A stretch of 30,891 bases of DNA. It comes from PVC group bacterium. GTDB lineage: Bacteria; GCA-001730085; JADFSZ01. Positions within the stretch are counted from its first letter, which is position 1; each line of letters opens with the position of its first letter. A program made the position numbers and the translations under genes. Below the pieces are notes generated by a model. That model had not been told where the DNA came from. It worked only from the letters and a program-made list of their open reading frames with translations, and did not search any database. The stretch lies in contig JADFSZ010000003.1 in assembly GCA_022560555.1 (NCBI GenBank), positions 1 through 30,891 of the forward strand, written 5' to 3'. Shown one piece after another: positions 2,693 through 25,252 of this stretch.

Positions 2693-2708
2693 ATTGAACC
2701 AAGAAATA

Positions 2709-3608: not shown

Positions 3609-3614
3609 GAAATG

Positions 3615-5848: not shown

Positions 5849-5889
5849 ATATATACCTAATTCTAATGGGGTTATAAGATCGAAGGACA

Positions 5890-5918
5890 AGTATAAAATA
5901 GGTCGTAAGAAAAGTCAA
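5890..5918 (-). promoter_or_regulatory. Sigma-70-type promoter of the arg operon (TTGACT-17 nt-TATACT on the minus strand)
   Basis: The minus strand reads TTGACT (5918-5913), a 17-nt spacer, then TATACT (5895-5890). The predicted TSS is near 5882, about 35 nt upstream of the argC ATG at 5848. Confidence 0.6.
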
Positions 5919-8646: not shown

Positions 8647-10236
8647 ATGAACATGGGATTACTTGTCAAAAACGGCCCGAACAAGGGCGCTCATTATCCT
8701 CTCAACGACACCCAACCCGTTGCAGGGACCAATTTCGCCATCAACGACGGCATCACAACCATCGGCCGCGGCATTGAAAGTGATATTCAGGTAAATGATG
8801 CCAAGGTTTCCCGTCAACATTGTCAGATCATTAAAGACAAAAATAATTATTTGATCCGCGATCTGAATAGCCGCAACCATATTAAAATCAATGAAAAAGT
8901 CATTACAGAAACGACTCTCCATGTTGGCGACGAAATCACACTTGGGGATACCATTTTAGTGTTCAGCCCCCGCACAAACATTCCTGATGACAAAAAATTT
9001 CAAAAAACCGATGGCAATCTGAATGAAATCCTCCATTCGAGCACAGTTAAAATCGCGCTTAAAGACAGTGACGCCGTCTTTGATACTAAGATTATTAAAG
9101 AAGATTTTGCCAAATATAAGAAGGCCCATGAAAGCCTTTTGACTCTGTACAAAGTCGGCAACATTATTAATTCGATTCGCGATATGAGGGAGCTTTTTTC
9201 TTCAATTCTTGAAGTTTTGTTTGAGGTCGTTAACCCGGATCGCTGCGTACTAATGACCTATGATGAAGAAACGAAGGAAATGGTGCCTCAGGCCGTTAAA
9301 AGGAAGAATGAACCCGTTAAAGAGGACGAAAAACTCCCGATCAGCCGGACATTGATCTCTTACATCACTAAAAATAAAGAAGCCATTCTTTCGAGCGACG
9401 CCATGGATGACACACGATTCCGGGGCAAAGAATCTATCGCAAAATTATCCATTCGCTCCATTATGTGCGCCCCGATTACAAGCAAGGAACGGCTCATCGG
9501 TCTCATCTATGTGGATTGTGATCAGGCCACGCATCAATTTGAAGACCATGACCTTCAATTGCTTCTGGCTATCGCCGGTCAAGCCGGGATCGCGATTGAA
9601 AACTCCAAACTTTTTGAAGATTTACATTCTCTTTTTCTTGATACCATCAAAACACTCGTAGCGATGATTGACGCGAAGGATCAATACACGCGGGGGCATT
9701 CCGAGAGAGTATGCGCGATCAGCCTTCTTATTGCCGATGAGTTGAATATCAACAAAATCGAAAAGGAAACTTTGCGCCTCGCGGCCATCCTCCATGATAT
9801 CGGAAAAATATGGATTCCCGAAGAGATTCTTAATAAGGCCTCGACGTTAACGGCAGAGGAGCTTGAAAATATCCGAAAACACCCTGAAACGGGAGCAAAA
9901 ATCATCGGAAACATTAAAAATCTTGAAGAGGTTGTTTACGGGGTTCGTCATCATCATGAACGCTTCGACGGGAAAGGATATCCGGACGGCTTATCAGGAA
10001 AACAGATCCCGCTTATGGCGCGCATCTTATGTGTCGCGGATTCTTTTGATGCCATGATTTCCAATCGGCCCTATCGAGATGCGCATGGTCGAGAGAAAGC
10101 TATAAGCGAATTAAAAAACGGATCCGGAACCCAATTTGATCCCGAAATTGTCGAAGCTTTTCTAAAAGCCGCTAAAAAAGCCTCGTTTATTTTTTCCGAA
10201 TTTGATATTGGAGAATCGGAATCAAAGAAGTCATGA
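8647..10236 (+). CDS. FHA-GAF-HD-GYP domain protein (predicted c-di-GMP phosphodiesterase)
   Basis: The N-terminal FHA pattern is TIGRGIESDIQVNDAKVSRQHCQI...IRDLNSRNHIKINEKV. The central region is GAF-like. The C-terminal HD-GYP domain has intact motifs (HSERV, ILHDIGK, HHHERFDGKGYPDGL, VADSFDAM). GGAG lies 11 nt upstream of the ATG. Confidence 0.85.
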   Translation: MNMGLLVKNGPNKGAHYPLNDTQPVAGTNFAINDGITTIGRGIESDIQVNDAKVSRQHCQIIKDKNNYLIRDLNSRNHIKINEKVITETTLHVGDEITLGDTILVFSPRTNIPDDKKFQKTDGNLNEILHSSTVKIALKDSDAVFDTKIIKEDFAKYKKAHESLLTLYKVGNIINSIRDMRELFSSILEVLFEVVNPDRCVLMTYDEETKEMVPQAVKRKNEPVKEDEKLPISRTLISYITKNKEAILSSDAMDDTRFRGKESIAKLSIRSIMCAPITSKERLIGLIYVDCDQATHQFEDHDLQLLLAIAGQAGIAIENSKLFEDLHSLFLDTIKTLVAMIDAKDQYTRGHSERVCAISLLIADELNINKIEKETLRLAAILHDIGKIWIPEEILNKASTLTAEELENIRKHPETGAKIIGNIKNLEEVVYGVRHHHERFDGKGYPDGLSGKQIPLMARILCVADSFDAMISNRPYRDAHGREKAISELKNGSGTQFDPEIVEAFLKAAKKASFIFSEFDIGESESKKS

Positions 10237-10583
10237 ACAAGAACAAAAGACAATTTATTCGTCTGAATGCTACCGTTCGAATTGTGATCATCCCCTATGA
10301 AGTTACAGACGAAAGGCTCCTGATCAAAGATGAAAAAGATGTATCAACGAAAAACATCAGCGCCGGCGGAATTTTATTCAGGTCCAACCAAACTCTCCCT
10401 ATCAACAGCCTTGTTGAAGTGAAAATTTTTCTTCCGTCCGAACCCAATCCCATTGACGCCATCGGTGAAATCCGCCACATGAGGCGTTTGAAACAATCCC
10501 CCGAATTCGATGTCGGGATACGCTTTCTCAAGATTGCCCATGCCGATCAGGCAAAACTGCTTCAGCTCAAAAAAATTTCCTAA
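10233..10583 (+). CDS. PilZ domain protein (c-di-GMP receptor)
   Basis: 116 aa. The RxxxR motif (RQFIR) and D/NxSxxG motif (NISAGG) are both present. The start ATG overlaps the HD-GYP stop as ATGA. Confidence 0.8.
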   Translation: MNKNKRQFIRLNATVRIVIIPYEVTDERLLIKDEKDVSTKNISAGGILFRSNQTLPINSLVEVKIFLPSEPNPIDAIGEIRHMRRLKQSPEFDVGIRFLKIAHADQAKLLQLKKIS

Positions 10584-10590
10584 GATGTGT

Positions 10591-12498
10591 TCAAGAGCCG
10601 GAATACCCCATGTGGATTTCTTCAATCACCCATTCAATATCGCTGACAAGGAAAGGTTTTTGAAGAACATACAGGGACCGGTCTTTTGTTTCGTCACGTT
10701 CATTCAGCGGGGAATTACGCTTGGTTAACACAATGATCGTCGGCTTGGTTTTGATGTCCTTGGTGAGATTTCGAATGTATTCAGCATTAACAGAATCGGA
10801 GACATCTTCATCAAGGACAATGATTTTATATTTATTGGCACGTGCCATGTCTCTTGCTTCTTCACAAGACGTCGTATGATGGAGATCCACCCCTTTGTCT
10901 TCAAAGACAAGATTCCAAACCCTCAACAAATTGGAATCCGTCATGAGAAGCAAAACGGACCAGTACGCCCAATTTGGGTTCAGCCCCGAGGAGGGATGCG
11001 GATATTCGCTGACATGCGACTTAAACTTTACGAGGGTGTTTTCCTTAATCATAACCGCGCTTTCTAATTCTTTAAGAACTTTCTTAACAACGGCTTCCCC
11101 TCCCGCCTTTTCTGTTTTGGGCAAGAGAACAGCTATGCGGCCATCGGTAAAATTAAAAACACGGTCATACGTGTGCGTCACATGAAACCGCACAATACGT
11201 GTGATAAACTCCATGAAATCCGATAGGATTTCTTTAGAATATTTTCTGGATATTTCGTCCCATCCTTCACAAATAAAATCGATAACGCAAAATTTCCATC
11301 CGGTCTGAATCGATTCTTCTATTCCCTTTGAAAAACAATCATAAAACAAGATCTCCGTTTTTTGCACACGGGGCAAGCGCATAAAAACGGTCGTTCCTCT
11401 CCCTTGATTCGACTCAAGCCAAACCGTACCCCCATGGACTTCCACAAGTTTTTTAGCCATCATCATGCTTAAAGACGATTCTTTAGCGCCCTCGGATGAC
11501 ACAAGAGAAACCTTCTCGACTGTTTCAAATATGTGTTTCAGTTTTTCTTCGGAAATTCCGGGCCCACCATCACGAATCCACAGCACAACAAACCAGCCAT
11601 CGTTTTTTGCTCCCAATTCAACTTGGCCCTTTTCAGGCGTAAATTTAAGAGCATTTCTGAGAAAAGCCATAAAAATCTGTGTCAACCGTTTCATGTCCGC
11701 CGAAATATTCTCGACGTTCCCTTCAACGCGATTGGAGAGAGAGAGACCTTTCTCCTCGGCAATCAGAGTATAAGACCTCACGAGATCATCGAGAAATAGT
11801 TTTGGAGATATGTCTTCATAATACAAAGGGAAGGCTCCCGACTCGATTTTAGAAATAATGAGCAGATCATTAATCGTGGCTGACATACACTCAACATTTC
11901 GGTTAGCACTGTCCAAAAACTTAAGCTGTTCATGAGTAAGTTCTCCCGCGGTTCCGTCTGCAAGGATATTGATATTCTCACGAATAATCGTGAGGGGGGT
12001 ATGCATCTCGTGCGAAATATTTGAAATAAAATCATCTTTAGTCTCATTCAATCTTTTCAGTTCGCCAATCGATTTTTCCATTTCCATATTACGCAGGGTA
12101 AGTGTGTTTTGCAAGTCTCTTAAATTCAGCAAGGCTTTGATACGCTCAATAAATATTTGCATATTCTGGTTTTTGTTAAAAAAATCATCTACACCGGCTC
12201 TATAGGCTTCCAGGACCAGAACGTCTTCCTCGGCACGTGCCGTTAACATGAGAATAGGAATGGTTTTATATTGAGGAATGGAGCGGATTTGTTTGACAAC
12301 CAGAGGCCCGTTCTCTTTAGGCATATAATAGTCAACAACGATACAATCAACACCTTGGTCATCGAGAAGTTTAAGCGCCTCGGACCCGCTATCGGCTTCA
12401 AGCACACCAAATCCCTCTTCTTTCATCCGAAGAGATAAAAGATGCCGGCTATCTTGGTCATCATCAACAATCAATATCGTATGTTTCTTTTTGTTCAT
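10591..12498 (-). CDS. Hybrid sensor kinase: REC-HisKA-HATPase_c-degenerate GGDEF-like-REC
   Basis: ORF 10591..12567. The likely start is ATG 12498 (MNKKKHTILIVDDD), because TTGCGG-17-TATAAT lies at about 12567-12539 within the longer ORF. The H-box is SHEMHTPLT, the N-box is LRNALKFT and G1 is IRDGGPGI. The G2 region is degenerate (KESSLSMMMAKKLVEVHGG). TDGRIAVLLPKTEKAGGEAV occupies the position of GGDEFAVLLP. The C-terminal receiver-like domain has IIVLDEDV, IIVLTK and LQKPF. Confidence 0.78.
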   Translation of the reverse strand: MNKKKHTILIVDDDQDSRHLLSLRMKEEGFGVLEADSGSEALKLLDDQGVDCIVVDYYMPKENGPLVVKQIRSIPQYKTIPILMLTARAEEDVLVLEAYRAGVDDFFNKNQNMQIFIERIKALLNLRDLQNTLTLRNMEMEKSIGELKRLNETKDDFISNISHEMHTPLTIIRENINILADGTAGELTHEQLKFLDSANRNVECMSATINDLLIISKIESGAFPLYYEDISPKLFLDDLVRSYTLIAEEKGLSLSNRVEGNVENISADMKRLTQIFMAFLRNALKFTPEKGQVELGAKNDGWFVVLWIRDGGPGISEEKLKHIFETVEKVSLVSSEGAKESSLSMMMAKKLVEVHGGTVWLESNQGRGTTVFMRLPRVQKTEILFYDCFSKGIEESIQTGWKFCVIDFICEGWDEISRKYSKEILSDFMEFITRIVRFHVTHTYDRVFNFTDGRIAVLLPKTEKAGGEAVVKKVLKELESAVMIKENTLVKFKSHVSEYPHPSSGLNPNWAYWSVLLLMTDSNLLRVWNLVFEDKGVDLHHTTSCEEARDMARANKYKIIVLDEDVSDSVNAEYIRNLTKDIKTKPTIIVLTKRNSPLNERDETKDRSLYVLQKPFLVSDIEWVIEEIHMGYSGS

Positions 12499-12605
12499 AA
12501 GAAAATCGATTTTCCCATTGAATAACCCCGTCGAAAACATTATACTATTCGAGTGAATATCCCGCAATACATGTTGACAAAAATATGCCGGCCTCTCAAG
12601 GCAAA

Positions 12606-13792: not shown

Positions 13793-14239
13793 CTAACGAA
13801 TTTTTGCGGAAATGGGCATAAGAATCGTTCCGTTTTGATAGCTTGGACCGCCAACCACCACGATTCCGCCATTAGCAAGTTGAAGAATCATATTAAGTTT
13901 GTACTTGGAAGCTTTTTCCATCCAGATCTTAACCTTTATCATGCTTCCGTCATAAGATTCCGGCTGAATATACATTTTCCCGCCATTAGGAATAGAAATT
14001 TGACTGATATCTTTAAAACCAACCGAGAATTGTTTTCGATCAAGAAGCTCCAAACTGTCAAACGGTAAATCTTGTCCGATAGAATGGATACGCGGATCAC
14101 GCCCCGTGTGGTCATTGGACGCATAAATGATGTCCACATCCAGATGCACTTGCGCGGCCAAAAGAGCGTCCATACAAGCGGCCTCGAGCCCGAGCAATAA
14201 ACAAAATACGAAAAAAAGGTTCCTCAAAACGTTCATCAT
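13793..14239 (-). CDS. Secreted hypothetical protein (signal peptide), third gene of the ECF operon
   Basis: 148 aa. The N-terminal hydrophobic signal is MMNVLRNLFFVFCLLLGLEAA. I recognise no motif. The start abuts or overlaps the stop of the upstream gene. Confidence 0.5.
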   Translation of the reverse strand: MMNVLRNLFFVFCLLLGLEAACMDALLAAQVHLDVDIIYASNDHTGRDPRIHSIGQDLPFDSLELLDRKQFSVGFKDISQISIPNGGKMYIQPESYDGSMIKVKIWMEKASKYKLNMILQLANGGIVVVGGPSYQNGTILMPISAKIR

Positions 14240-14835
14240 ACCCTTCCCGAAAAATCAACATCCCTCAGCGGCTTAACAACAGCTATGTCTCTACTATGAA
14301 AACCAAAAGAATGAATGGGTTTTAGGTTTTTGTCATCTTCTAAGTTTTTATTCATGACAGGATCCGGGTTTTCCTGAAGCCAAATATATGTTAAACCATC
14401 ATCTGTCCCCTTGAAAATCATAACATGATTTGTTCTATTTTCCAAATATTCTACATAACATTCATTTGCTACGTTCACAGAAGCTTTATGTTCAAAAAAA
14501 TTATAGGTCCCCACCACCATGAGACAAAGGACACACATCACAAGACCCGCGCGCCAACTTAAAACCTTTTTTCTGACAAGAGACACGAGACTTTCCTTTT
14601 GCCCTAAATCGGCACGAATGGATTCCCAAAGATACTGTGTCGGACGTTCAGCCATTTCGCGATCAATAGACTCCTTAATCGAAAGACGTACAGACTGAAA
14701 AAAACGGGCTGTTTTATACCGCAAGGGGTTCTCCTCTAGCTCTTTCTCCCCTAGGGATCCCTCAATCGGCGGCATGGTGTCTTCCAAATACCTTTCGAGT
14801 TCACGTCTATCCCATTGTTTTCTTCTAAATTTCAT
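14236..14835 (-). CDS. Putative single-pass membrane anti-sigma factor
   Basis: It lies immediately downstream of, and overlaps, the ECF sigma gene. It has a cytoplasmic N-terminal region, one TM segment (AGLVMCVLCLMVVGTYNFF) and an extracytoplasmic C-terminal domain. The call rests on position and topology only. Confidence 0.5.
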   Translation of the reverse strand: MKFRRKQWDRRELERYLEDTMPPIEGSLGEKELEENPLRYKTARFFQSVRLSIKESIDREMAERPTQYLWESIRADLGQKESLVSLVRKKVLSWRAGLVMCVLCLMVVGTYNFFEHKASVNVANECYVEYLENRTNHVMIFKGTDDGLTYIWLQENPDPVMNKNLEDDKNLKPIHSFGFHSRDIAVVKPLRDVDFSGRV

Positions 14836-15370
14836 AAAAATCATCTCCTAAAACGTTCACAACTTTTCGGCGCGCATAATAAAGGCGGCTCATCACGGTC
14901 CCCATAGAACAGTTGAGAACCTTGGCAATGGAATCATAATCTAGTCCCTGGATCTCCCTCAGGACAAGGATCCGGCTGTGTTTTTTACCAATCTGGGATA
15001 GAGCTTGGTAAAATCTTTCAACAAGTTCTTTATTTTCAATTTGAGATTTTGGGTCAACTTTTGATGCTAGGGGCAATGATTCATCCAAACTCACTTTTTT
15101 TTCCCGGCGGCGTTTTCTATATTGGTCAATGCCCGCGTTGACGGCAACACGATACAACCAGCTTGCCAAGTGAATCCCCGTGTCCATCTTTGGTAGCCGT
15201 TGATAGAGTTTCAGGAAGATATCTTGAGAGATGTCTAAAGCATCCTCTCGACTCCTAAGAACGCCAAACAGCGCGCGATATACCCGATCCTTATGAGCTT
15301 CAACAATCATCCGGAATGCCTCCCTATCCCCCTTTGAGGCACGAAGAAGAAGTTCTTTGTCGTTAAACAC
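14825..15370 (-). CDS. ECF-type RNA polymerase sigma factor (sigma-70 family, group 4)
   Basis: 181 aa with a GTG start and AAGGAG 8 nt upstream. The region 2 pattern is DISQDIFLKLYQRL...WLYRVAVNAGIDQYRKRRR. The region 4 pattern is ILVLREIQGLDYDSIAKVLNCSMGTVMSRLYYARRKV. Confidence 0.88.
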   Translation of the reverse strand: MFNDKELLLRASKGDREAFRMIVEAHKDRVYRALFGVLRSREDALDISQDIFLKLYQRLPKMDTGIHLASWLYRVAVNAGIDQYRKRRREKKVSLDESLPLASKVDPKSQIENKELVERFYQALSQIGKKHSRILVLREIQGLDYDSIAKVLNCSMGTVMSRLYYARRKVVNVLGDDFYEI

Positions 15371-15814: not shown

Positions 15815-16159
15815 TTAAAGCTCATTTTGCAAATGAACATAATCATCGATAACAGCCAAATCTTTTTCGGAAATATTCGTAAAAAAAACACCGGTATCAT
15901 AACACTCTAAGGAAGACTCGCGGACACGATCACATCTAACAACAACGCCTTCACACGAAATTTTTGAAGTTTTTTTCCTCGACACAGGTAGCTCTAATTC
16001 TACCATAACTTTTTTCATGTACGTGATGGGCTGATCGACTTGACAATAGATGCCGGATGTGCTGATATTTTTAACATCTGTGATAATCTTTGATGATTGC
16101 CCCGAAAGGTTAATCTTAAAGTCGCCTGATTTACGTTTCTTTTTTCTTCTCTCGGCCAT
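15815..16159 (-). CDS. PilZ domain protein (c-di-GMP receptor)
   Basis: 114 aa. RxxxR lies within RRKKKRK and D/NxSxxG is NISTSG. A purine-only tract of more than 25 nt lies upstream of the ATG. Confidence 0.75.
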   Translation of the reverse strand: MAERRKKKRKSGDFKINLSGQSSKIITDVKNISTSGIYCQVDQPITYMKKVMVELELPVSRKKTSKISCEGVVVRCDRVRESSLECYDTGVFFTNISEKDLAVIDDYVHLQNEL

Positions 16160-16347: not shown

Positions 16348-18204
16348 TTACGAAACTAAATTTTCAACTCCATCCAACGGAGGAACGTTTTCATAGCGCA
16401 GTTGTCTATAAATTTCTTTAGCGCTCTCTAAGAGGCCCTTTTCCTTGTGGGCCCGAGCTAGTTGAAGCAAAATCCATCGCGTAAGCGAAGAATCAGGATG
16501 GATTTTGAGAAATAAATTGTAAACAGAAATGCTTTTATCAAAACGGTTTAGATCAAAGGAGACCTCCCCCATCCTCAAAAGAAGAGTTTTTTTCAAAAAC
16601 GTGTCCTCCTGATCTTGGGCGCCCACCCACGCGAGCTCATAGTGCCGAAGAGCACTCTCGAGCGTTTTCTGGGATTTGTGAATATCTCCACACGCCATGT
16701 GCAATTCTATTTGTTCGCCCCATGTCATAGCCGGATCCTCCAGGAGTGCTTGATACACCTGAAGAGCCCGAGGGGTTTCCCCGCGGAATTGATATATTTG
16801 ACCTAAGGCTTTTTTCACGTCTCCCGGCAAGCTCATAAAAGGGCGCTCTTGGCTATAACGCACAAATTTTTCTATATCTTGCGGCGGAATCGAGGGCAAG
16901 CCTTTATGGAGGATTTCCCCTCCCAAAAGCTTGAGAAGTACCATCGTATCCACCTCGCTATCCCGGATATCTCTTTGCAAGGCCCCCATCACCATCTTCG
17001 CTTGAGAAAAGAGCCTCATATCCGTATAAGCTTCTATGAGCTTACGATATGCACGCCCACGTTCCTCCTCGTCCGTCACGAGCTCATACTCAAGAGAGGC
17101 TTCGATATTCCACAAAGCGAGTAAAGATCGATCCTCTTTTTGCCAAATCCGATTCATCGCTTGAATCACGACCAACGATTGTTCTTGATTCGGGGCTGTC
17201 GAAAGAAATCTCTCAAACATCGTAATCGCCTTCGTCGGCTCACCAAGGGCCGAATAAGCTTGTCCAAGGTAATAGGTAAGTCCTGCAGGATCTGCTTGGT
17301 TTAGCTCGATTTTTGCCAAACACAACTTGATCACATCAGAATATTTCTCACGATTCAGATAAGTTTCGACCAAAAAACCAAATATTTGTTTCAATACAGT
17401 CGCGTTAACATGCTGATTTTTCATGACCTCATAGAGTTTATTCATTTCATCAATGCTCCCCATGAAACAATGATTCTTAGCAATTTGAATGAGGACGTCA
17501 TTCACACGAGGGCTTTTGGGGAATCTATCTATGAGCTCGTAATATGTGTCAATGGCCAATTGATGTTGTCCAAGACGCGTATACCCAAGAGCCAGGCCTC
17601 GTAGTTCAGCCTCAAGACCACCCGAATCCGGAGCATGACTACCTTTAAGATGATGATCGGCCGGAAAAATAATTATCTTTGAATCCTCCCTTTTATAGAA
17701 ACATCCGATCGGATTTAGGATGAGTTGTATAAGGTCTTTTAAAACATAGATGCCCTCGGACAGCTGAATAGGGGTTTTCAAAAAGTCGCTCTCGATCGCG
17801 TCATCGATCATAATATCGAGAGATGTTTTTGTTTTTAAGAGTCCCAAGAACTCTCCTAATGTCGACACATAGGCTTGATAATAAACTTTTTTCTCAAACA
17901 CATCTTGGGCTTTATCCGCGGGATCCAACATATCCCCTTCGGCCCCTAACTCCTCCGGGAGGGAAGGTTCTTTTTTGATTTGGGACGGCTCTTTCTTGGG
18001 TGAATCCGGGACAAGGGAATCCTGGAATTCATAAATCAGAACATTCTGAACTTCCTTTTTTATATTCTTCATTTTTAAATTGAGACGGTCGATGTCTTCC
18101 CTGAGCGTTTGGGCATAAACGTTTTGATGAAAAATTATCAATAGTATTACAAAAAAACTTCGTGAGAAAAAAATTTTGAAACCCGGGTTCATGACATTTT
18201 CCAT
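16348..18204 (-). CDS. Secreted TPR-repeat protein, possibly with an N-terminal STN/secretin-N-like domain
   Basis: 618 aa. The signal peptide is FFVILLIIFHQNVYA-QT. Residues around 100-190 (LGEFLGLLKTKTSLDIMIDD...LKDLIQLILNPIGCFYKREDSKIIIFP) resemble STN-type domains. The remainder consists of repeated TPR-like helical pairs. The alternative start at ATG 18192 forms ATGA with the upstream stop. Confidence 0.75.
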   Translation of the reverse strand: MENVMNPGFKIFFSRSFFVILLIIFHQNVYAQTLREDIDRLNLKMKNIKKEVQNVLIYEFQDSLVPDSPKKEPSQIKKEPSLPEELGAEGDMLDPADKAQDVFEKKVYYQAYVSTLGEFLGLLKTKTSLDIMIDDAIESDFLKTPIQLSEGIYVLKDLIQLILNPIGCFYKREDSKIIIFPADHHLKGSHAPDSGGLEAELRGLALGYTRLGQHQLAIDTYYELIDRFPKSPRVNDVLIQIAKNHCFMGSIDEMNKLYEVMKNQHVNATVLKQIFGFLVETYLNREKYSDVIKLCLAKIELNQADPAGLTYYLGQAYSALGEPTKAITMFERFLSTAPNQEQSLVVIQAMNRIWQKEDRSLLALWNIEASLEYELVTDEEERGRAYRKLIEAYTDMRLFSQAKMVMGALQRDIRDSEVDTMVLLKLLGGEILHKGLPSIPPQDIEKFVRYSQERPFMSLPGDVKKALGQIYQFRGETPRALQVYQALLEDPAMTWGEQIELHMACGDIHKSQKTLESALRHYELAWVGAQDQEDTFLKKTLLLRMGEVSFDLNRFDKSISVYNLFLKIHPDSSLTRWILLQLARAHKEKGLLESAKEIYRQLRYENVPPLDGVENLVS

Positions 18205-18572
18205 AAAAGATGTTTTTCAATATGCCCAACACCGGAGGAAAATTTTTGGATCCCGTCTTCAAGGGAAGCAACTATCTCGATCATTTGAGATAGACCGCAA
18301 ATCCGAAAAACATTGTGAAGTTTTTCCTGGACTCGAATCATTTTAATATCCCCACCGCTCTTTCGAAAAACCTCCGACAAACGCAAAATCACCTTCATTC
18401 CTTTCGTGGACATACCTTCGAGATCTTCGCAATCTAAAATCACACAATACTTACCTTCCTTTTGCAATTGGCCAAGAAAGGTTTCAAGTTCCTGACACTC
18501 CCCTAAAACCACGTCCCCTTTGAGCGTGACAACCATGAGGTGATTTATTTTCTTTTTCTTAATGTTAAACAT
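18189..18572 (-). CDS. STAS domain protein (anti-sigma-factor-antagonist-like), second copy
   Basis: ORF 18189..18593. The start is ATG 18572 (MFNIKKKKINHLMVVTLKGDV), with GGAGAG 5 nt upstream, and it overlaps the upstream stop by 8 nt. It has STAS topology, with GMSTKGMKVIL at the position of DSSGLG. Confidence 0.72.
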   Translation of the reverse strand: MFNIKKKKINHLMVVTLKGDVVLGECQELETFLGQLQKEGKYCVILDCEDLEGMSTKGMKVILRLSEVFRKSGGDIKMIRVQEKLHNVFRICGLSQMIEIVASLEDGIQKFSSGVGHIEKHLLWKMS

Positions 18573-20040
18573 GGACTCTCCGGCTCCAAACAAATGTCAT
18601 CCTTGAAGCGTTGTTCTTCCTATTTTCTATCTGCCAACGATCCGCGAGTTGATCCCACAGAGGCCGCGCGGGATGTTCTATTGACTCGCTCTCTGAGATA
18701 CAGAAATTTCGGCACTCAAACACACATGTCCTATGTTTGGAGCCGGATGACCAGACAAGTGTCACAGAGGAGTCTTTCGAACAACGATCCAAAAGAAAAA
18801 GATAGGCCTCCACACACACAGTTTTGATCAGATAAAAATCCTCCTCGCTTCCAACGGATTCATCTTCCGAAATAAGCTGCAAATATTCTTGTAGATTTTT
18901 AATGTTCTCTTCCGGGTTCACGAAGTTTAAATCTAAGTTATGAGTCGTTTCCTTTGAATCAAGCTGAAGAAAAAGACATTCATAATCGCCCTCAAGGACA
19001 TGGGACACATCCCGAACGTTTTGCCGGGATGAATTCTCTGTTTTACTAAGAACCATTTTACATTTTTTCAGGTATGCGTTTTTGTCAGAGCCTCCCATCG
19101 GCTCCTTGGTCATCACAAGCCCTTCCAATAGAGAGAAACCGAGTTCCTTTTCAACGAATTTCATGGACTCTGAGAGACCGATCAATCCGGATGTCACAGG
19201 AAAATCCAAAAGATCATTCTTTCCGATTCCGATAACAAAATCCCATCCCGCGTTCGCATACGTTATTTTGTTTTTGAGGGGATCCCAAGTGAAAATGAAC
19301 ATGGCCGAGACATCCATGCCGTTCTTCAAAAGCACATCATTCATTTTCGTTAAAATAGGACTTGGGGCAAGACCATCTCGCACGTATTCGCGACACATAT
19401 TCCATACAAGATGTTCATGAAATCCTTTTTGTATTCCTTTTGTTTTTGAACTCATGGCAAAAAACCCATATCGCCCTTTATCGAGTCTCTCACAATGATA
19501 CATCAAGTTTTTATGATCCTGAGAGGATATCTTCACACGCGCTTGGGCCTGCTCTTGACGTCTTAGATTTACTTGAGAAATATATTGAATCATTCCATCT
19601 CTCTCATTAGCTTTAGCTCTCAGATCAGAATTCTCCTTTTCTAAAAATTTAATCTTTTTATATACGTTTGATTTTTTCTGAATATCCTGAACAGCCGTAT
19701 GGATCTCCTCTAAATCATACGGTTTGTTGATAAACGAGTGGACATGTTTTCGGATAGCTTTTTTCGCCAGGTCAAAATCTGATTGTGCCGTTGTAATTAT
19801 GACTTCGATCTCCGGATATTTCTGCTTGGCAAGATCCAAAAGTTCTATCCCCTCTTCTTGATCCGCCAAATTGATGTCCGTAATCAAGACATCCCACGTA
19901 CGCTTGTCCAAGAAACTTACACCATCTTCAAAAGTATGGGCGACCTGCACAACGCATCCCATTTCCTCGCATGAATCTTTGAGAGCCCATGCGAGAACTT
20001 TTTCATCATCAACAACAAGAACGTTTAATGGGGCATCCAT
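18565..20040 (-). CDS. Response-regulator fusion: REC - coiled coil - degenerate PP2C/SpoIIE-like domain - degenerate RsbW-like HATPase domain
   Basis: ORF 18565..20115 begins with TTG. The likely start is ATG 20040 (MDAPLNVLVVDDEK), with AAGGA 8 nt upstream. The REC domain has DVLITDINL and INKPYD. The middle region aligns by eye with the PP2C of ORF 22588..23973 (AMFIFTWDPLKNKITYANAGW versus FVTLFYGCLDLKKRKLHYTNAGH), but the metal-binding Asp motifs are replaced: GRYGFF for GGDYFD, AMSSKTKG for ADVSSKG, and VMTKEP for YTDGVV. The C-terminus is laid out like RsbW (VCVEAYLFLLDR) but lacks the N-box Asn and the G-boxes. Confidence 0.68.
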   Translation of the reverse strand: MDAPLNVLVVDDEKVLAWALKDSCEEMGCVVQVAHTFEDGVSFLDKRTWDVLITDINLADQEEGIELLDLAKQKYPEIEVIITTAQSDFDLAKKAIRKHVHSFINKPYDLEEIHTAVQDIQKKSNVYKKIKFLEKENSDLRAKANERDGMIQYISQVNLRRQEQAQARVKISSQDHKNLMYHCERLDKGRYGFFAMSSKTKGIQKGFHEHLVWNMCREYVRDGLAPSPILTKMNDVLLKNGMDVSAMFIFTWDPLKNKITYANAGWDFVIGIGKNDLLDFPVTSGLIGLSESMKFVEKELGFSLLEGLVMTKEPMGGSDKNAYLKKCKMVLSKTENSSRQNVRDVSHVLEGDYECLFLQLDSKETTHNLDLNFVNPEENIKNLQEYLQLISEDESVGSEEDFYLIKTVCVEAYLFLLDRCSKDSSVTLVWSSGSKHRTCVFECRNFCISESESIEHPARPLWDQLADRWQIENRKNNASRMTFVWSRRVHV

Positions 20041-20213
20041 ACATGATCCTTTTGAACCCGTCCTTTGAAAAACCGCTGACGGTAATACCCTGGTTAAGCC
20101 AAGTTCAGTACCCAAAGATTTTTTCTGAGAAAACCATTACGGGATTTTTGCGCGTTTTGTGTTGGTCTCACTTGCATGATCAAGATCCTTACTAGGGACA
20201 TCCATAATAATTG

Positions 20214-20229
20214 TGCAAGGTACATGCCA
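20214..20229 (-). promoter_or_regulatory. Sigma-54 (-24/-12) promoter: TGGCATGTACCTTGCA on the minus strand
   Basis: The minus strand from 20229 to 20214 reads TGGCAT-GTACC-TTGCA, against the consensus TGGCAC-N5-TTGCW. The GG-N10-GC spacing is exact. It lies 108 bp downstream of the NtrC-family gene stop and faces the REC-PP2C-like operon. The predicted TSS is near 20203. A perfect 16-bp AT palindrome, TTATTTATATAAATAA, lies at 20247-20262. Confidence 0.7.
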
Positions 20230-20336
20230 AATCAAATTTACATTTTTTATTTATATAAATAACTTGGATTACTGTGTTTATGGATATTTTAGTCTCAACG
20301 GCGGGGGCTCTCACAACAGATGCCTAAGTACAATTA

Positions 20337-21722
20337 CTATACATTTTTTTCTAAATTGTACTTATCAATTTTATTATATAGGGTCGTTCGATTGATACTA
20401 AGAATCTTAGCGGATTTATTCCGATTCCACTTTGTATCCCTTAGCACACGTTGAATATGGCGTTTTTCAATCTCATCCAGGCTTAAATCTTCAAGTTGCT
20501 CTTCTTGACTTTGGTTGTCCATTCGGGCCCCTTCGGCAATGATTTCGGGCTGTCTTTGCAGCATCAAATTGTCCAAAGAAAGAAACGCATCTTCACCCAA
20601 TATCATCGCCCGTTCAATAACGTTCTTCAATTCACGCACATTTCCCGGCCAAGCATAAAAAAGAAGTCTTTGTTTTGCTTCGTCGGTCAGGCCTATAAAA
20701 TTGGATTTAAATTCTTTATTGAATTCTTTAATGAAGAATTTAGCCATATCGAGGATATCCTCTTTATGTTCTCTTAATGGAGCCACATAAATAGGCATCA
20801 CTTTTAGGCGATAATACAAATCCTCCCGGAACGTTCCGTCTTTTACGGCCTCTTCAAGATTTTTATTGGTTGCGGCAATAATACGAATATCAACAAAAAT
20901 ATCTTTTATTCCTCCCACACGGCGAAAGGATTTCTCCTCAATAGCGTGCAAAAGCTTCGACTGCATGCCCGGGGTCATATCCCCGATTTCATCCAAAAAC
21001 AAGGTTCCCCCATCGGCCAATTCGAACAATCCCTCCTTGGTCTTTTTCGCATCCGTAAAGGCGCCTTTTTCATGTCCAAACAACTCGCTTTCGAGAAGGG
21101 CTTCCGGCAAAGCCGTGCCATTAACTTCAACAAAGGGTTTATCTGCCCGGCCGGACGCATAATGGATGACTCGCGCAACCAAACTTTTTCCTGTGCCGCT
21201 ATCGCCCTGAATGAGCACCGTCGAGGCTTTACTCTCGGCCACTTTTGCAACAAGCCGATTGAGGTCTTGAATCACGGAACTTTCTCCGATAATGCTCGTC
21301 AGCTTATATTTACGCCGTTCACCCTGGCGAATGTGCCCTATCTCCTTTTTGAGAGTTCGTGTCTCGAGAGCTTTAGCAATATTGATGAGAAGTTCTTCGA
21401 TATTAAACGGCTTATTAATGTAATCGTAAGCTCCCAACTTCATGGCTTGAACGGCGGAGTCGATATCAGCATATCCCGTGATCATCATGACAATCGCCTC
21501 CGGATCATATTGGATAATGGTTTTTAAAAGATCCATCCCGTTTAGGTCCGGCAGCTTCATGTCGAGAAGTATAAGATCCGGGTTTTTCTGACTGATACAA
21601 TCCAGGATATCAATTTCTCCGTCCGAAAGAATGACATCATAACCGGCTAGGGTCAGAGCCTCGTTGAGCGCGAAACGAATGGACTTTTCATCATCTATAA
21701 CGAGAATGGATTGCTTTGACAT
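20337..21722 (-). CDS. Sigma-54-dependent response regulator (NtrC family enhancer-binding protein)
   Basis: ORF 20337..21737 begins with GTG. The likely start is ATG 21722 (MSKQSILVIDDEK), with GGAG 9 nt upstream. The REC domain has LILLDMKLPDLNG. The AAA+ domain has Walker A GDSGTGKS, a GAFTGA-type loop reading GAFTDA, Walker B TLFLDEIG and FREDLYYRL. The C-terminal Fis-type HTH is KSAKILSINRTTLYNKI. Confidence 0.92.
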   Translation of the reverse strand: MSKQSILVIDDEKSIRFALNEALTLAGYDVILSDGEIDILDCISQKNPDLILLDMKLPDLNGMDLLKTIIQYDPEAIVMMITGYADIDSAVQAMKLGAYDYINKPFNIEELLINIAKALETRTLKKEIGHIRQGERRKYKLTSIIGESSVIQDLNRLVAKVAESKASTVLIQGDSGTGKSLVARVIHYASGRADKPFVEVNGTALPEALLESELFGHEKGAFTDAKKTKEGLFELADGGTLFLDEIGDMTPGMQSKLLHAIEEKSFRRVGGIKDIFVDIRIIAATNKNLEEAVKDGTFREDLYYRLKVMPIYVAPLREHKEDILDMAKFFIKEFNKEFKSNFIGLTDEAKQRLLFYAWPGNVRELKNVIERAMILGEDAFLSLDNLMLQRQPEIIAEGARMDNQSQEEQLEDLSLDEIEKRHIQRVLRDTKWNRNKSAKILSINRTTLYNKIDKYNLEKNV

Positions 21723-21761
21723 GGCGGATATCTCCACATGGTGGTTAACAAAAATAAAATT

Positions 21762-22097
21762 TTAGGTAAAACTTTCCAGAGCTTCGTCTTCCGTTGAAAA
21801 TATTGCAAACACTTTCGTCAGCTGACTAATTTCAAAGAGCTCACGAACATACTTTTGGAGATTACAAAATCTCAATTCTCCGTCTTCCTCTCTGATCATT
21901 TTTAATCCTGAAACCAGAATGCCCAGTCCCGAGCTATTAATGAAATCAACATCAGCTAAATTTATCAAAATTTTCTTCCGCTTATCCATTAAAGCCTGAT
22001 TCAGACACTCTTTGAGGCTTAAAGATGAATTAATATCGAGTTTACCCGACAAATCAACTATAGTCACATCACTCACTTTTCTAGTTTTGATGTCCAC
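21762..22097 (-). CDS. Anti-sigma-factor antagonist (STAS; RsbV/SpoIIAA type)
   Basis: 111 aa. It carries the canonical motif DFINSSGLGILV with the phosphorylatable Ser. It overlaps the upstream kinase gene by 17 nt. Confidence 0.88.
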   Translation of the reverse strand: MDIKTRKVSDVTIVDLSGKLDINSSLSLKECLNQALMDKRKKILINLADVDFINSSGLGILVSGLKMIREEDGELRFCNLQKYVRELFEISQLTKVFAIFSTEDEALESFT

Positions 22098-22518
22098 AGA
22101 CGCTTCCCTCCTTATCTAAATATTTAATCAAAGATACACACGTTCCTGAATTTTTTATTCGACGAAACTTGAGTTGATCTAAATAGCTTCTCATAATAAA
22201 AATCCCTCGCCCTGTTTCCATCCCAACATTATTTTCATCTATAACACCATGACGCTTAGGGTCATATCTAAAATCATTCTTTCCCTCATCCGTCACATCA
22301 ATTTGAAGTTGATGGGGCTTTATATCCACATTCACAATGATTGTTCCATCTTGATTTTCTTTGTTTCCGTGAATGATCGCGTTTGTGACAGCTTCACTCA
22401 CGGCAATAGAAAGCCTGATTTTTTGTTGAGGGTCAAATTTCAGCAAAACGCTTAATTCATTCACAAAGCTATGAACCACGTCCAAATAATTAAGCGAACT
22501 TTTAAAAGTTAATTTCAT
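22081..22518 (-). CDS. RsbW/SpoIIAB-type serine kinase / anti-sigma factor (HATPase_c_2)
   Basis: 145 aa. The N-box is SEAVTNAIIHG, followed by DVTDEG and TGRGIFIMRSY. Size and order are typical of partner-switching kinases. Confidence 0.85.
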   Translation of the reverse strand: MKLTFKSSLNYLDVVHSFVNELSVLLKFDPQQKIRLSIAVSEAVTNAIIHGNKENQDGTIIVNVDIKPHQLQIDVTDEGKNDFRYDPKRHGVIDENNVGMETGRGIFIMRSYLDQLKFRRIKNSGTCVSLIKYLDKEGSVCGHQN

Positions 22519-22587
22519 TTTTTAGTGTGCCAAGGTTTGTTCCAAGTGAGTTTCAAACAACCGTATTTTTACACTCTTTAGAATCCA

Positions 22588-23973
22588 TTAAGCAATAAGA
22601 CGTATGGCCACCATCGCAATATCATCATACTGCTCTAAATCACCGCTAAAAGCAACCAGTTCCTTGAACAGCCCATCAATTAAATTTTTGGAACTTTCTT
22701 CTAAATGTTCGCGAATATATTCACAAAGACGGAATTCTCCGAATAAATCTCCTTGAGGCGAAAGAGATTCAACGACACCATCTGTGTAAAAAAACAGTAA
22801 GTCTCCGTCCAAGAGATCCACGGTTTCTTCCTCGTACTCGGCATCATCGAGAATTCCCAAAAAAAGCCCTCCGGCTTTCAAACGCATCGGCTCACGGAGG
22901 TCTTTTCTAAAGATGAGAGGATAACAATGTCCGGCGTTTGTATAATGTAATTTTCTCTTTTTAAGATCCAAACACCCGTAAAACAATGTTACGAACATGT
23001 CGGTATCTCTGTTGATATCCGAACACACAAGCTGATTGGATCGGGTAATAATGTTCTTAGGCGAAGATTCTCGACTTATGTTTCCCCTTAAAATGGCGCG
23101 TGTCGCGGTCATAACAAGCGCCGCGGGAACACCTTTACTGGAGACATCCGCGACAATGACATGGAGGAGCCCGGAATCAGTAAGGAGATCGAAATAATCC
23201 CCGCCGACTTCTTTCGTGGCTGAATATTTGGTCGCGATGTCAAGGCCGGGAATCTGCGGCGGTTTTTGCGGCAAAAGCCCCAATTGTATGTCCCGGCCCA
23301 ACTGCAGTTCCTGCTCGTATTTTTGCTTCACAAGAGACTCATTGTGCAACAATGCATTATCTATGGCAACAGCGGCAAACCCGGCTACGGCCTTAATGAT
23401 TCTTTTGGCAAATTCGTCAATCTCATCAATGCGTTTAGAGTTGACGATGTTCAGTATGCCCACGGCTCGATCCCGTGTCAAAAGAGGGATACATAACACA
23501 GATTCAATAGTATGATCGCCCTCCTTGCACTCCAGATCCGGATGTTCACGCGGATTTGAATACATCAACAGTTGTTGGGTCAACAAGGCTTCATCGCAAA
23601 TAGACAATCCGCTTTTTTTAATTTTTATCGATCGAATAATTTTATCTTCAAGACTCCAGGAAATTCTTGTTACAAGACGGCCTTCTTCAAGAAGCATGAT
23701 AGAGCCGACTTCCGCGTCGGTCATTTTTAAAGGGAAATAAATGAGGTGGAATAAAATGCGCTCAAGATCGAAGCTGGAGTTGACAAGCTGTCCCGCCTCC
23801 TCTAAATCATCAAGATCTTTAACGCGCTGTTCTAATTTTACGCGGGTTTGGGCAAGAAGCGTTCTCAAATTCCGGTTTTCACTTTTCAAATCTTCCGAAG
23901 AGGGCAACTCGCTCGAAGAATCTTTATCACGCATATGATTTACCCCGGTCTGAAAGGCTTTGGCCCCAAGCAT
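22588..23973 (-). CDS. GAF domain-containing PP2C (SpoIIE/RsbU-type) serine phosphatase
   Basis: 461 aa. It has an N-terminal coiled coil and a GAF-like region. The PP2C motifs are intact: GGDYFDLL, VADVSSKGVPAALVM, YTNAGH, FFYTDGVVES and YDDIAMVAIRL. The alternative start is ATG 23934. Confidence 0.88.
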   Translation of the reverse strand: MLGAKAFQTGVNHMRDKDSSSELPSSEDLKSENRNLRTLLAQTRVKLEQRVKDLDDLEEAGQLVNSSFDLERILFHLIYFPLKMTDAEVGSIMLLEEGRLVTRISWSLEDKIIRSIKIKKSGLSICDEALLTQQLLMYSNPREHPDLECKEGDHTIESVLCIPLLTRDRAVGILNIVNSKRIDEIDEFAKRIIKAVAGFAAVAIDNALLHNESLVKQKYEQELQLGRDIQLGLLPQKPPQIPGLDIATKYSATKEVGGDYFDLLTDSGLLHVIVADVSSKGVPAALVMTATRAILRGNISRESSPKNIITRSNQLVCSDINRDTDMFVTLFYGCLDLKKRKLHYTNAGHCYPLIFRKDLREPMRLKAGGLFLGILDDAEYEEETVDLLDGDLLFFYTDGVVESLSPQGDLFGEFRLCEYIREHLEESSKNLIDGLFKELVAFSGDLEQYDDIAMVAIRLIA

Positions 23974-24006
23974 ACCGACCTTTCTTGCCTCAAAATCGAC
24001 ATGTTT

Positions 24007-24459
24007 TTATGTAGTTTTTTCTTGATCCTTTTTATTAAAATACTTATCGAATGCTTCTCCTAATTCCGTTAGTGTCGTGATAAAAACTTTAATATCTCCG
24101 CCCGGAATGAGTTTTTTGACATTTTCCATCGTTTCCTCATCCATATCATCAGCGACAGCAACCGTAATGACATTCCCAATTTTATCCACAGGCAAAACAC
24201 CCAATCCCCGGCATATATCCTCGGTAAATATATCCAAAAGTCCTTGGTCGATATCGTAACATCCCAAAGGAAGATAGGCGTGCCCGCCCTGCTCCATGAG
24301 ATGGTCCGCAACCTGCTCTTCCGTGACAAACCCTAGCTCAACAAGAATCTTTCCTAAAAAGCCCCCTTGCTTTTTCTGAACTTCGAGGGCTTTTTCTAAT
24401 TGCTCATTAGTAAGAAGCCCGTCGGCTATGAGAAGTTCTCCGATTCTCTTTTTGGCCAT
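24007..24459 (-). CDS. Stand-alone MshEN / T2SSE_N domain protein (predicted c-di-GMP receptor)
   Basis: 150 aa. RIGELLIADGLLTNEQLEKALEVQ fits the published 24-residue MshEN motif RLGxx(L/V/I)(L/V/I)xxG(L/V/I)(L/V/I)xxxxLxxxLxxQ at every fixed position apart from Ile at the Leu of RLG. After a 5-residue spacer (KKQGG) comes a second copy, FLGKILVELGFVTEEQVADHLMEQ. No ATPase domain follows. Confidence 0.8.
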   Translation of the reverse strand: MAKKRIGELLIADGLLTNEQLEKALEVQKKQGGFLGKILVELGFVTEEQVADHLMEQGGHAYLPLGCYDIDQGLLDIFTEDICRGLGVLPVDKIGNVITVAVADDMDEETMENVKKLIPGGDIKVFITTLTELGEAFDKYFNKKDQEKTT

Positions 24460-24579: not shown

Positions 24580-25200
24580 TTAGTTGACCGCGGCGGGAAT
24601 AAAAACGACGGTAGTGAATGTTTTTTCCTTTTCAAGCCCTTTGGCTTCGGTTGTAACACTTACTTTCACGGCCTTCGGCAAAGGGATCACTCCGTCGGGC
24701 CAATTTTTATCCGTATTGCTCCAGGTTGTTCCATCATCCGTCCACTCAAAATTGAGTTTACTAAATGCATATCCCGCTTCTGCCGCTTCGTTCAAAGTTG
24801 TATCCCAAGTCGCGTCCGGTTCATCCGTTGAGTTTATGACACGATATATCACTGATCCGCTCAATTGGTAATAAACTTCTGAAACGCCCCATCCGATGGA
24901 ACCACTATCAAAAATAATCAAACTCAAGGTATCACTATCGGTGGAGTCATTAAATTGCATCGCATTGGCCAGGTCACCATTTTTATAATTTATGGTAGCG
25001 ATCAAATCTTTTTCAACCAACTGCAAGAAAACACGCGCATTCTGAAGGGCTTCTGTCTGTGTTTCGCCCCGTGTCCAGAAATCCGTTGAAGCGTTAAAAA
25101 TCACGTACACCACCCCAAAAACAAGCGTTAAAATAACGGCCGCCACCAAAACCTCAATAATCGTAAACCCTTTTTTGGACCGTTTTATTTTATTCACCAT
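24580..25200 (-). CDS. Type IV pilin-like / T2SS pseudopilin (prepilin N-terminal methylation motif; GspJ/PulJ-like)
   Basis: ORF 24580..25218. The likely start is ATG 25200 (MVNKIKRSKKGFTIIEVLVAAVIL), with GGAG 8 nt upstream. It has the classic G/FTxxE prepilin peptidase site followed by a hydrophobic helix. Confidence 0.8.
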   Translation of the reverse strand: MVNKIKRSKKGFTIIEVLVAAVILTLVFGVVYVIFNASTDFWTRGETQTEALQNARVFLQLVEKDLIATINYKNGDLANAMQFNDSTDSDTLSLIIFDSGSIGWGVSEVYYQLSGSVIYRVINSTDEPDATWDTTLNEAAEAGYAFSKLNFEWTDDGTTWSNTDKNWPDGVIPLPKAVKVSVTTEAKGLEKEKTFTTVVFIPAAVN

Positions 25201-25252
25201 TCTTAGTTCTCCACTCACCGTTTCACTCTTTCATAATAGTTTTTTGCTTCTT

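Follow-up and report, generated by a model that had tools for sequence, protein, structure and literature searches.

The 30,891-nucleotide stretch analyzed here (the window: contig JADFSZ010000003.1, positions 1 to 30,891, assembly GCA_022560555.1, a bacterium of the PVC group) encodes on its minus strand a protein of 491 amino acids, which joins a receiver (REC) domain to a PP2C-like domain and to a C-terminal domain with the predicted fold of RsbW/SpoIIAB anti-sigma kinases. Both enzymatic halves of this fusion are without the residues that are required for catalysis, and the gene is translationally coupled to a gene for a STAS-domain protein, i.e., a putative anti-sigma-factor antagonist. 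The 491-residue protein probably works by binding alone, and we favor, with modest confidence, an interpretation of the operon as a partner switch of HsbR/CrsR descent that has become enzyme-free, the mechanism being inferred from the domain architecture. A fusion of REC, PP2C fold and RsbW fold in which both enzymatic halves are catalytically dead had been proposed in the original prediction, which a model had made from the DNA letters and their translations, and the loss of catalytic residues in both halves bears this out. The features that carry the argument are the following:

18565-20040, minus strand: REC-pseudo-PP2C-pseudo-RsbW protein, 491 amino acids, ATG at 20040
19666-20040, minus strand: REC domain, residues 1-125, intact phospho-acceptor pocket
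19516-19665, minus strand: linker, residues 126-175, helical and then of low confidence in AlphaFold2 (AF2)
18958-19515, minus strand: degenerate PP2C/SpoIIE-fold domain (pseudophosphatase), residues 176-361
18568-18957, minus strand: predicted RsbW/SpoIIAB-fold domain without ATP site (pseudokinase, anti-sigma-like scaffold), residues 362-491
18189-18572, minus strand: STAS/anti-sigma-factor-antagonist protein, 127 amino acids
16348-18204, minus strand: TPR-repeat protein, 618 amino acids, TPR Pfam families with E-values down to 7e-22

Loss of the Metal Center in the PP2C-Like Domain

Though degenerate, the middle domain is a genuine homolog of PP2C/SpoIIE. The Pfam SpoIIE profile (PF07228) matches residues 201-299 with an E-value of 4e-4 and 20.7 bits (E 1.3e-4 for the excised region), and with 20.7-22.4 bits the domain stays below the gathering score of 25 bits and thus outside formal family membership. 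The proposed alignment with the neighboring, genuine PP2C phosphatase (a GAF-PP2C protein encoded upstream) is borne out by BLASTP, which recovers both motif pairs, KITYANAGW/LHYTNAGH and SGLIGL/GLFLGI, at an E-value of 2e-4. Likewise, hhalign against 123 SpoIIE domains, a template set from which a 97%-identical ortholog (P0001) had been taken out, aligns residues 180-311 with Prob 97.3 and E 2.4e-11. An exhaustive phmmer search of residues 140-491 against 1.84 billion representatives returned the protein's own cluster and three weak matches (E 1.6e-5 to 2e-4), all of which are bona fide SpoIIE-domain proteins, one of them of the order HAMP-SpoIIE-HATPase_c_2.

The predicted structure agrees with this assignment. 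In a full-length AF2 model built with a PP2C-rich multiple sequence alignment (MSA), the predicted local distance difference test (pLDDT) averages 76 and lies at 75-92 over residues 180-360. Foldseek matches this model to RssB of Pseudomonas aeruginosa (E 3e-16), to RssB of Escherichia coli (E 2e-14 to 2e-12), and to the fused RsbU-RsbW domains of Rv1364c (E 9e-11, about 350 aligned columns); the structures that place the domain in the PP2C fold are RssB 3f7a, 3eq2, 8twd and 6od1 together with Rv1364c 3ke6, at E-values from 3e-16 to 2e-10.

Catalysis by PP2C/SpoIIE enzymes needs the first and the bridging aspartate for a binuclear metal center. According to both hhalign and MAFFT, the motif GGDFYD corresponds to K177-N178-L179-M180-Y181-H182, so that the first metal-binding aspartate reads L179, and gDVSGKG corresponds to M196-S197-S198-K199-T200-K201-G202, so that the bridging aspartate reads S197. 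The motif YTDG corresponds to T311-K312-E313, where the third aspartate is replaced by K312 or E313, the register being ambiguous by one residue, and DDxT probably corresponds to D352-Y353. Of the four aspartates of the bimetal site (GGDFYD, DVSGKG, TDG, DDxT), D352 is thus the only one that may survive. Since the first and the bridging aspartate are gone, no binuclear metal center is expected to form. The original prediction had every alignable metal-binding motif substituted, with which L179, S197 and K312/E313 agree. It had also equated GRYGFF with GGDYFD; this pairing is out of register, GRYGFF being the strand after the motif, yet the loss of the aspartate itself still holds. The second pairing, AMSSKTKG with ADVSSKG, was correct and places S197 at the bridging position.

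A Predicted RsbW-Like Fold Without an ATP Site

The C-terminal domain is silent at the level of sequence. The last 112 and the last 152 residues find no Pfam match even at E-values up to 10, and a PDB sequence search with residues 140-491 returned no genuine match to this domain; ankyrin/DARPin structures matched to the stretch VLLKNGMDV in the same search were discarded as spurious. BLASTP detects no similarity between the C-terminus and the neighboring RsbW, which led us to reject a recent duplication of that gene as the origin of the domain. A comparison with 101 HATPase_c_2 domains by hhalign was not significant (P 0.44); its best path puts VCVEAYLFLL on the N-box helix, which is a mere hint. 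By sequence profile, the domain is accordingly not a member of HATPase_c_2 (PF13581).

Structure prediction, in contrast to sequence comparison, gives a consistent answer. Residues 362-491 were folded by AF2 from the single sequence, without an MSA, in order to avoid the bias of an imposed alignment. The resulting model (pLDDT 75.5; predicted template modeling score, pTM, 0.71) has the topology beta-alpha-alpha-beta-beta-loop-alpha-beta-beta, and the MSA-based full-length model shows the same order of secondary structure elements in this domain. When the MSA-free model was compared with the PDB by Foldseek, all 17 matches with E-values below 1e-3 were anti-sigma serine kinases, with template modeling (TM) scores of 0.62-0.76. 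UsfX of Mycobacterium tuberculosis ranks at the top (8jzt, 8ih8; TM 0.72-0.76, E 3e-7 to 3e-6), further matches include SpoIIAB (1tid, 1th8, 1l0o, 1til, 1thn) and Bacillus subtilis RsbW (6m36, 6m37), and the catalytic domains of histidine kinases follow the anti-sigma kinases with much weaker scores. These models support a Bergerat-type sandwich with RsbW topology in residues 362-491.

The predicted fold does not retain the features of a kinase. Helix 399-419, which takes the place of the N-box helix, is without asparagine. Residues 376-491 contain only two glycines (G397 and G433), and whichever register is chosen, the N-box, G1 and G2 boxes are missing. Strand 3 and helix 3, between which the ATP lid would be expected, are joined by a glycine-free loop of about 14 residues. 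Because the ligand of Mg-ATP and the G1/G2 boxes are absent from the sequence, kinase activity of this domain is very unlikely. The RsbW layout without N-box asparagine and G-boxes that had been read from the translated sequence is thereby supported by the MSA-free model, by Foldseek and by the residue counts; taken together, hhalign and Foldseek assign the PP2C and RsbW folds to the two regions, and not different folds, as might have been the case.

Receiver, Linker and Gene Start

In contrast to the two enzymatic halves, the receiver looks functional, as had been claimed. Pfam Response_reg covers residues 7-118 with an E-value of 2.9e-21 and 76.2 bits (cut-off 30.2), and the residues of the phosphorylation pocket, D11, D12, the phospho-acceptor D55, T83/T84 and K106, are all kept. 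The AF2 model has pLDDT values of 85-98 in this domain, which Foldseek matches to REC structures at a TM score of about 0.9. A long helix (residues 110-146) runs on from helix 5 of the receiver into the linker, and pLDDT drops below 50 at residues 143-175. A comparable helical linker is found in RssB of P. aeruginosa (PMC6546054).

The start of the gene is well defined: an AAGGA ribosome-binding site lies 7 nucleotides 5' of the ATG at 20040, and gene calling done independently on a second contig arrives at the identical start. A longer open reading frame (ORF) of 516 codons from a TTG at 20115 was considered and rejected, given that the receiver begins at the ATG, that the ribosome-binding site there is good and that the independent call agrees.

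The Operon and Its STAS Partner

The stop of the 491-codon gene and the start of the STAS gene share an 8-nucleotide overlap, ATGTTTAA, confirming the overlap that had been described; the two genes are translationally coupled. The TPR gene, in turn, is the apparent third gene of the operon: its start overlaps the STAS stop in an ATGA at 18188-18191, if the protein begins with MNPGFKIFF, and independent gene calls show the same 4-nucleotide overlap between STAS and TPR genes, with the same gene order on five other contigs. The N-terminus of the TPR protein resembles a signal peptide (FKIFFSRSFFVILLIIFHQNVYAQ). A probably exported protein is thus encoded by a gene coupled to one for a cytoplasmic STAS protein.

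The STAS protein is a regular member of its family by profile, with Pfam STAS (PF01740) at an E-value of 9e-14 and 51.5 bits (cut-off 22.6), and TIGR00377 at 54.9 bits (cut-off 53.45). Its presumed phosphorylation motif had been reported to read MSTKG where a serine is usual. This motif is indeed present, but the acceptor is not lost: in a gap-free BLASTP alignment with the neighboring STAS protein, NSSG corresponds to S55-T56-K57-G58 and Thr56 to Ser55. Thr56 thereby falls on the canonical phospho-acceptor position, which by an alignment of our own corresponds to SpoIIAA Ser58 (DSSG), and should be phosphorylatable in principle. RsbR paralogs use threonine at their STAS phosphorylation sites. 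The original conclusion that the switch is independent of phosphorylation is consequently not established, as Thr56 is a possible acceptor and an apparently competent RsbW and GAF-PP2C, encoded 2-4 kb upstream, could act on it in trans.

Selection and Distribution

The order of target, STAS and TPR genes recurs on five more contigs from five samples (L001, L082, L083, L084 and L085); the samples that carry the locus are ERZ23499094, ERZ23499476, ERZ23486734, ERZ27267425 and SRR24269689. On these five contigs, the STAS protein is 100% identical; compared with the window copy, each shows 4-9 synonymous and no nonsynonymous differences. The 491-codon ORF is intact, free of frameshifts and stops, on each of the six contigs, and its omega (nonsynonymous relative to synonymous change) is about 0.4 in the full-length comparison and 0.42-0.55 in partial copies that cover both pseudo-enzyme domains. 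Fisher tests of synonymous against nonsynonymous changes give p 0.037 for the target gene by itself and p 0.0005 for target and STAS genes combined. The contrast in constraint between the two overlapping genes is sharp (omega 0 for STAS, 0.4-0.55 for the pseudo-enzyme domains). Such a pattern would suit a binding scaffold whose constraint is relaxed without being lost, and not a pseudogene.

Beyond these copies, the module appears to stand on its own. The 491-residue protein has no relative outside its own cluster in 5.8 billion 90%-identity clusters, none beyond the weak SpoIIE matches in the 1.84 billion 50%-identity representatives, and none in the contigs of 185,579 species genomes; an exact look-up of the window's own protein returned no record. 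A homolog search with the STAS protein likewise found its own 90% cluster only. When the sigma-54 activator encoded upstream was used to scan the genomes, identities reached at most 51%, the best locus (L002) was not syntenic, and the genome scans did not turn up an orthologous operon that would represent an active ancestor. All known copies of the module belong to a single uncultured, species-level metagenomic lineage.

Relation to Known Regulators

The combination of a REC-PP2C-RsbW architecture with a STAS partner is not unprecedented. HsbR/HsbA of P. aeruginosa (PA3346/PA3347) and CrsR/CrsA of Shewanella oneidensis consist of a regulator of this type and a STAS antagonist (PMC6482189). The 491-residue protein resembles HsbR and CrsR in domain order, in the adjacent STAS gene and in the receiver as input. 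It differs from them in that HsbR and CrsR have two working enzyme domains, which control the phosphorylation of a STAS serine, whereas here both sites are predicted to be lost and the acceptor position is taken by a threonine. We found about 20 REC-SpoIIE-HATPase_c_2 proteins of about 536 amino acids with intact motifs, and this domain order is abundant in metagenomes. Sequence similarity to the HsbR/CrsR-type family is limited to the receiver and part of the PP2C domain: a hidden Markov model of 20 such proteins, which is too narrow a model, gives a weak match to these parts.

Each of the dead halves has a precedent of its own. For the PP2C half, this is RssB of E. coli, a REC-pseudo-PP2C adaptor for the degradation of sigma-S, which is without the catalytic aspartates and acts by binding (PMC6546054). 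RssB is the best Foldseek match of the full-length model and likewise joins a receiver by a helical linker to a PP2C fold. In contrast to P. aeruginosa RssB, which combines its receiver with an active PP2C, the protein described here has a degenerate one, and it has a predicted C-terminal RsbW fold that RssB lacks. For the kinase half, the precedents are UsfX of M. tuberculosis and RsbW1 and RsbW3 of Mycobacterium smegmatis, all recognizable by sequence as HATPase_c_2 proteins. In these, the RsbW/SpoIIAB fold binds without kinase activity (PMC7693655). In structure, the C-terminal domain is matched best by UsfX (TM 0.76); the mycobacterial proteins stand alone, whereas the domain here is fused behind a receiver and a pseudo-PP2C and has lost its sequence signal. 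A direct succession of PP2C and RsbW folds in one chain is shared with Rv1364c of M. tuberculosis (PDB 3KE6), which has a PAS sensor instead of a receiver and a STAS domain in cis. Rv1364c has been described as enzymatically active. The death of both halves in a single receiver-gated fusion appears to be new; we found no described case of it in open-access texts, to which our search was limited.

Genomic Neighborhood

By ORF and Pfam reading, positions 16348-24459 of the minus strand form a dense series of signaling genes. Upstream of the 491-codon gene, these are:

24007-24459, minus strand: MshEN-domain protein, 150 amino acids, MshEN only; upstream of the GAF-PP2C gene
22588-23973, minus strand: GAF-PP2C phosphatase (Pfam SpoIIE, E 1.3e-49)
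22081-22518, minus strand: RsbW-type kinase (Pfam HATPase_c_2, E 1.6e-22)
21762-22097, minus strand: canonical STAS protein with NSSG motif (Pfam STAS, E 1.5e-22)
20337-21737, minus strand: NtrC-type sigma-54 enhancer-binding response regulator (REC, AAA+, HTH_8)
20214-20229, minus strand: putative sigma-54 (-24/-12) promoter TGGCATGTACCTTGCA, in the 300-nucleotide gap 5' of the 491-codon gene

The GAF-PP2C/RsbW/STAS module at 21762-23973 has its catalytic motifs intact (GGDYFD, ADVSSKG, YTDGVV, DDIA, the N-box SEAVTNAIIHG, and GRGIF), and is a possible source of a trans-acting kinase and phosphatase for Thr56 as well as a possible binding partner. It is followed, after a gap of 24 nucleotides, by the gene for the sigma-54 activator (Sigma54_activat, E 2.5e-68; Response_reg, E 1.8e-26; HTH_8, E 6e-13), which suggests that 20337-23973 is one operon linking a partner switch to sigma-54-dependent transcription. 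A gap of 300 nucleotides separates the activator gene from the 491-codon gene. The pattern TGGCAY-N5-TTGCW has one exact match in the whole window, at 20214-20229 within this gap, the chance expectation being 0.05 per window. Judged from position, the adjacent activator may plausibly drive the operon of the 491-residue protein in a sigma-54-dependent manner.

Several other genes in the window relate to signaling. A PilZ gene and the gene of an FHA-GAF-HD_5 (HD-GYP-type) protein share 4 nucleotides (8647-10583, plus strand), a second, stand-alone PilZ protein is encoded at 15815-16159 (minus strand), downstream of the TPR gene, and a type IV pilin-like protein or pseudopilin with an N-terminal methylation motif (N_methyl, E 2e-7) is encoded beside the signaling genes at 24580-25218 (minus strand). 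Together with the MshEN protein, this neighborhood points to signaling by cyclic di-GMP (c-di-GMP) or to surface behavior. The minus strand at 10591-12567 encodes a soluble hybrid histidine kinase of 658 amino acids with HisKA and HATPase_c, no recognizable sensor domain, and Response_reg in two matched stretches (best residues 31-143); it is a candidate phosphodonor for the receivers of the region. Within 13793-15370 (minus strand), the gene of an extracytoplasmic function (ECF) sigma factor (14825-15370) overlaps an ORF of 202 codons without Pfam match, whose product may be the anti-sigma factor of this sigma factor, and an ORF of 148 codons with a signal-peptide-like start comes after it. 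A housekeeping block occupies 730-5890 (minus strand), comprising argC-like (4820-5890), argJ (3615-4823) and argB-like (2709-3608) genes, after which come those for both E1 subunits (alpha and beta) of a 2-oxoacid dehydrogenase, and the window is therefore considered chromosomal and not a mobile element.

Proposed Mechanism and Alternatives

In the mechanism we propose, the RsbW-fold domain would keep its ancestral binding role; its partner would be the STAS protein of the same operon, a sigma factor or a further RsbW or STAS protein, or more than one of these. By analogy with RssB and the phosphatases of the SpoIIE family (PMC6546054), the dead PP2C domain and the helical linker would form an allosteric relay that reports to the C-terminal binding surface whether Asp55 is phosphorylated, such that the choice of partner would be set by receiver phosphorylation instead of a balance between the protein's own kinase and phosphatase. 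Phosphorylation of Thr56 could then occur only in trans, most plausibly by the RsbW and GAF-PP2C encoded 2-4 kb upstream, and would thereby tie the two modules together. The output may concern c-di-GMP or a surface-lifestyle decision, as for HsbR/HsbA. A stricter version dispenses with phosphoryl transfer to the antagonist altogether: phosphorylation of the receiver aspartate would toggle the fossil RsbW domain between the STAS protein and an output protein via the fossil PP2C, and Thr56 would never be phosphorylated. We regard this version as tentative and would not expect it to hold; if it did, allostery would stand in for the kinase/phosphatase cycle, the defining feature of partner switching.

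Several points weigh against the enzyme-free switch. The C-terminal fold is seen in predicted structures, with a sequence signal of nil, and the mechanism is read off the architecture of the operon. An omega of 0.4-0.55 amounts to a rather relaxed constraint on the pseudo-enzyme domains, and conservation across taxa cannot be drawn upon, because the module belongs to one species-level lineage only. In addition, no sigma factor of the SigB, SigF or RpoS type is encoded in the window, and the sigma-54 site is a consensus match only.

The alternative that survives best, and which is still unlikely, is that the protein serves as a decoy or antagonist of the neighboring module, its pseudo-RsbW domain forming heterodimers with the RsbW kinase (22081-22518) or titrating the canonical STAS protein (21762-22097), with receiver phosphorylation gating the decoy and the co-encoded STAS protein acting as its keeper. 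RsbW-type anti-sigma factors are dimers, and a complete module with intact catalytic motifs is encoded 2 kb upstream in the same orientation. Moreover, the kinase-negative RsbW3 of M. smegmatis binds RsbW1 directly, antagonizes it and boosts SigF activity (PMC7693655), and HsbR and CrsR interact with one another through their anti-sigma domains, each of which also binds the STAS partner of the other (PMC6482189). However, the dissimilarity of the C-terminus and the neighboring RsbW leaves no conserved dimer interface evident, and the protein's own tightly coupled, extremely conserved STAS partner suggests a self-contained pair.

Its likeness to RssB raises the possibility, which we consider improbable, of a proteolytic adaptor, whose phosphorylated receiver and pseudo-PP2C would deliver a sigma factor or another client to ClpXP, with the STAS protein as anti-adaptor. 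RssB proteins are the best full-length structural matches (E 3e-16 to 2e-12), and in Pseudomonas a STAS-type gene, rssC, follows rssB. Small anti-adaptor proteins, furthermore, inhibit E. coli RssB, itself an adaptor made of a receiver and a pseudophosphatase (PMC6546054). Yet any REC-PP2C protein should resemble RssB in structure, an RsbW-fold domain is absent from RssB, and neither clpX/clpP nor rpoS is encoded nearby. The NCBIfam RssB equivalogs (NF007969/NF045505) reach 35.1 bits against a cut-off of 329 and cover residues 6-168 only, i.e., receiver and linker.

Even less probable is a decaying relic, namely an HsbR-like gene that drifts after loss of function while only the STAS and TPR proteins are still used. 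Such decay would account for the absence of all catalytic motifs, for the fast substitution relative to STAS (omega 0.4-0.55 vs. 0) and for the lack of homologs outside one lineage, but is at odds with the ORF being intact on 6/6 contigs, with an omega below 1 (Fisher p 0.037), with the preserved receiver pocket and translational coupling, and with the pTM of 0.71 of the single-sequence model, which implies a well-packed, foldable domain. Finally, residual enzymatic activity by non-canonical residues, be it a single-metal phosphatase (E313/D352) or altered nucleotide binding, is scarcely credible, since the acidic residues E313 and D352, possible remnants of two of the four PP2C motifs, and the possible alignment of E411 with the GHKL catalytic glutamate (on a non-significant alignment path) are set against a serine (S197) in place of the aspartate that binds both metals, a leucine (L179) in place of the first aspartate, and a GHKL domain without the asparagine for Mg-ATP and without a glycine-rich lid, and we know of no precedent for either chemistry.

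Implications for Partner Switching

The practical impact of the enzyme-free switch is limited, as it concerns one uncultured lineage and precedents exist for each single domain. In terms of method, a domain without detectable sequence relatives was assigned to a fold by single-sequence prediction, an approach that is useful for fast-evolving pseudoenzymes in metagenomes. Partner switches are normally described as kinase/phosphatase cycles that act on a STAS protein. If our interpretation is true, a complete HsbR/CrsR-type module has kept its scaffold, its receiver input and its STAS partner while losing both enzymes, and the logic of binding would thereby be uncoupled from the chemistry of the switch. 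The PP2C “switch” domain and the RsbW fold could then serve as purely allosteric and binding parts.

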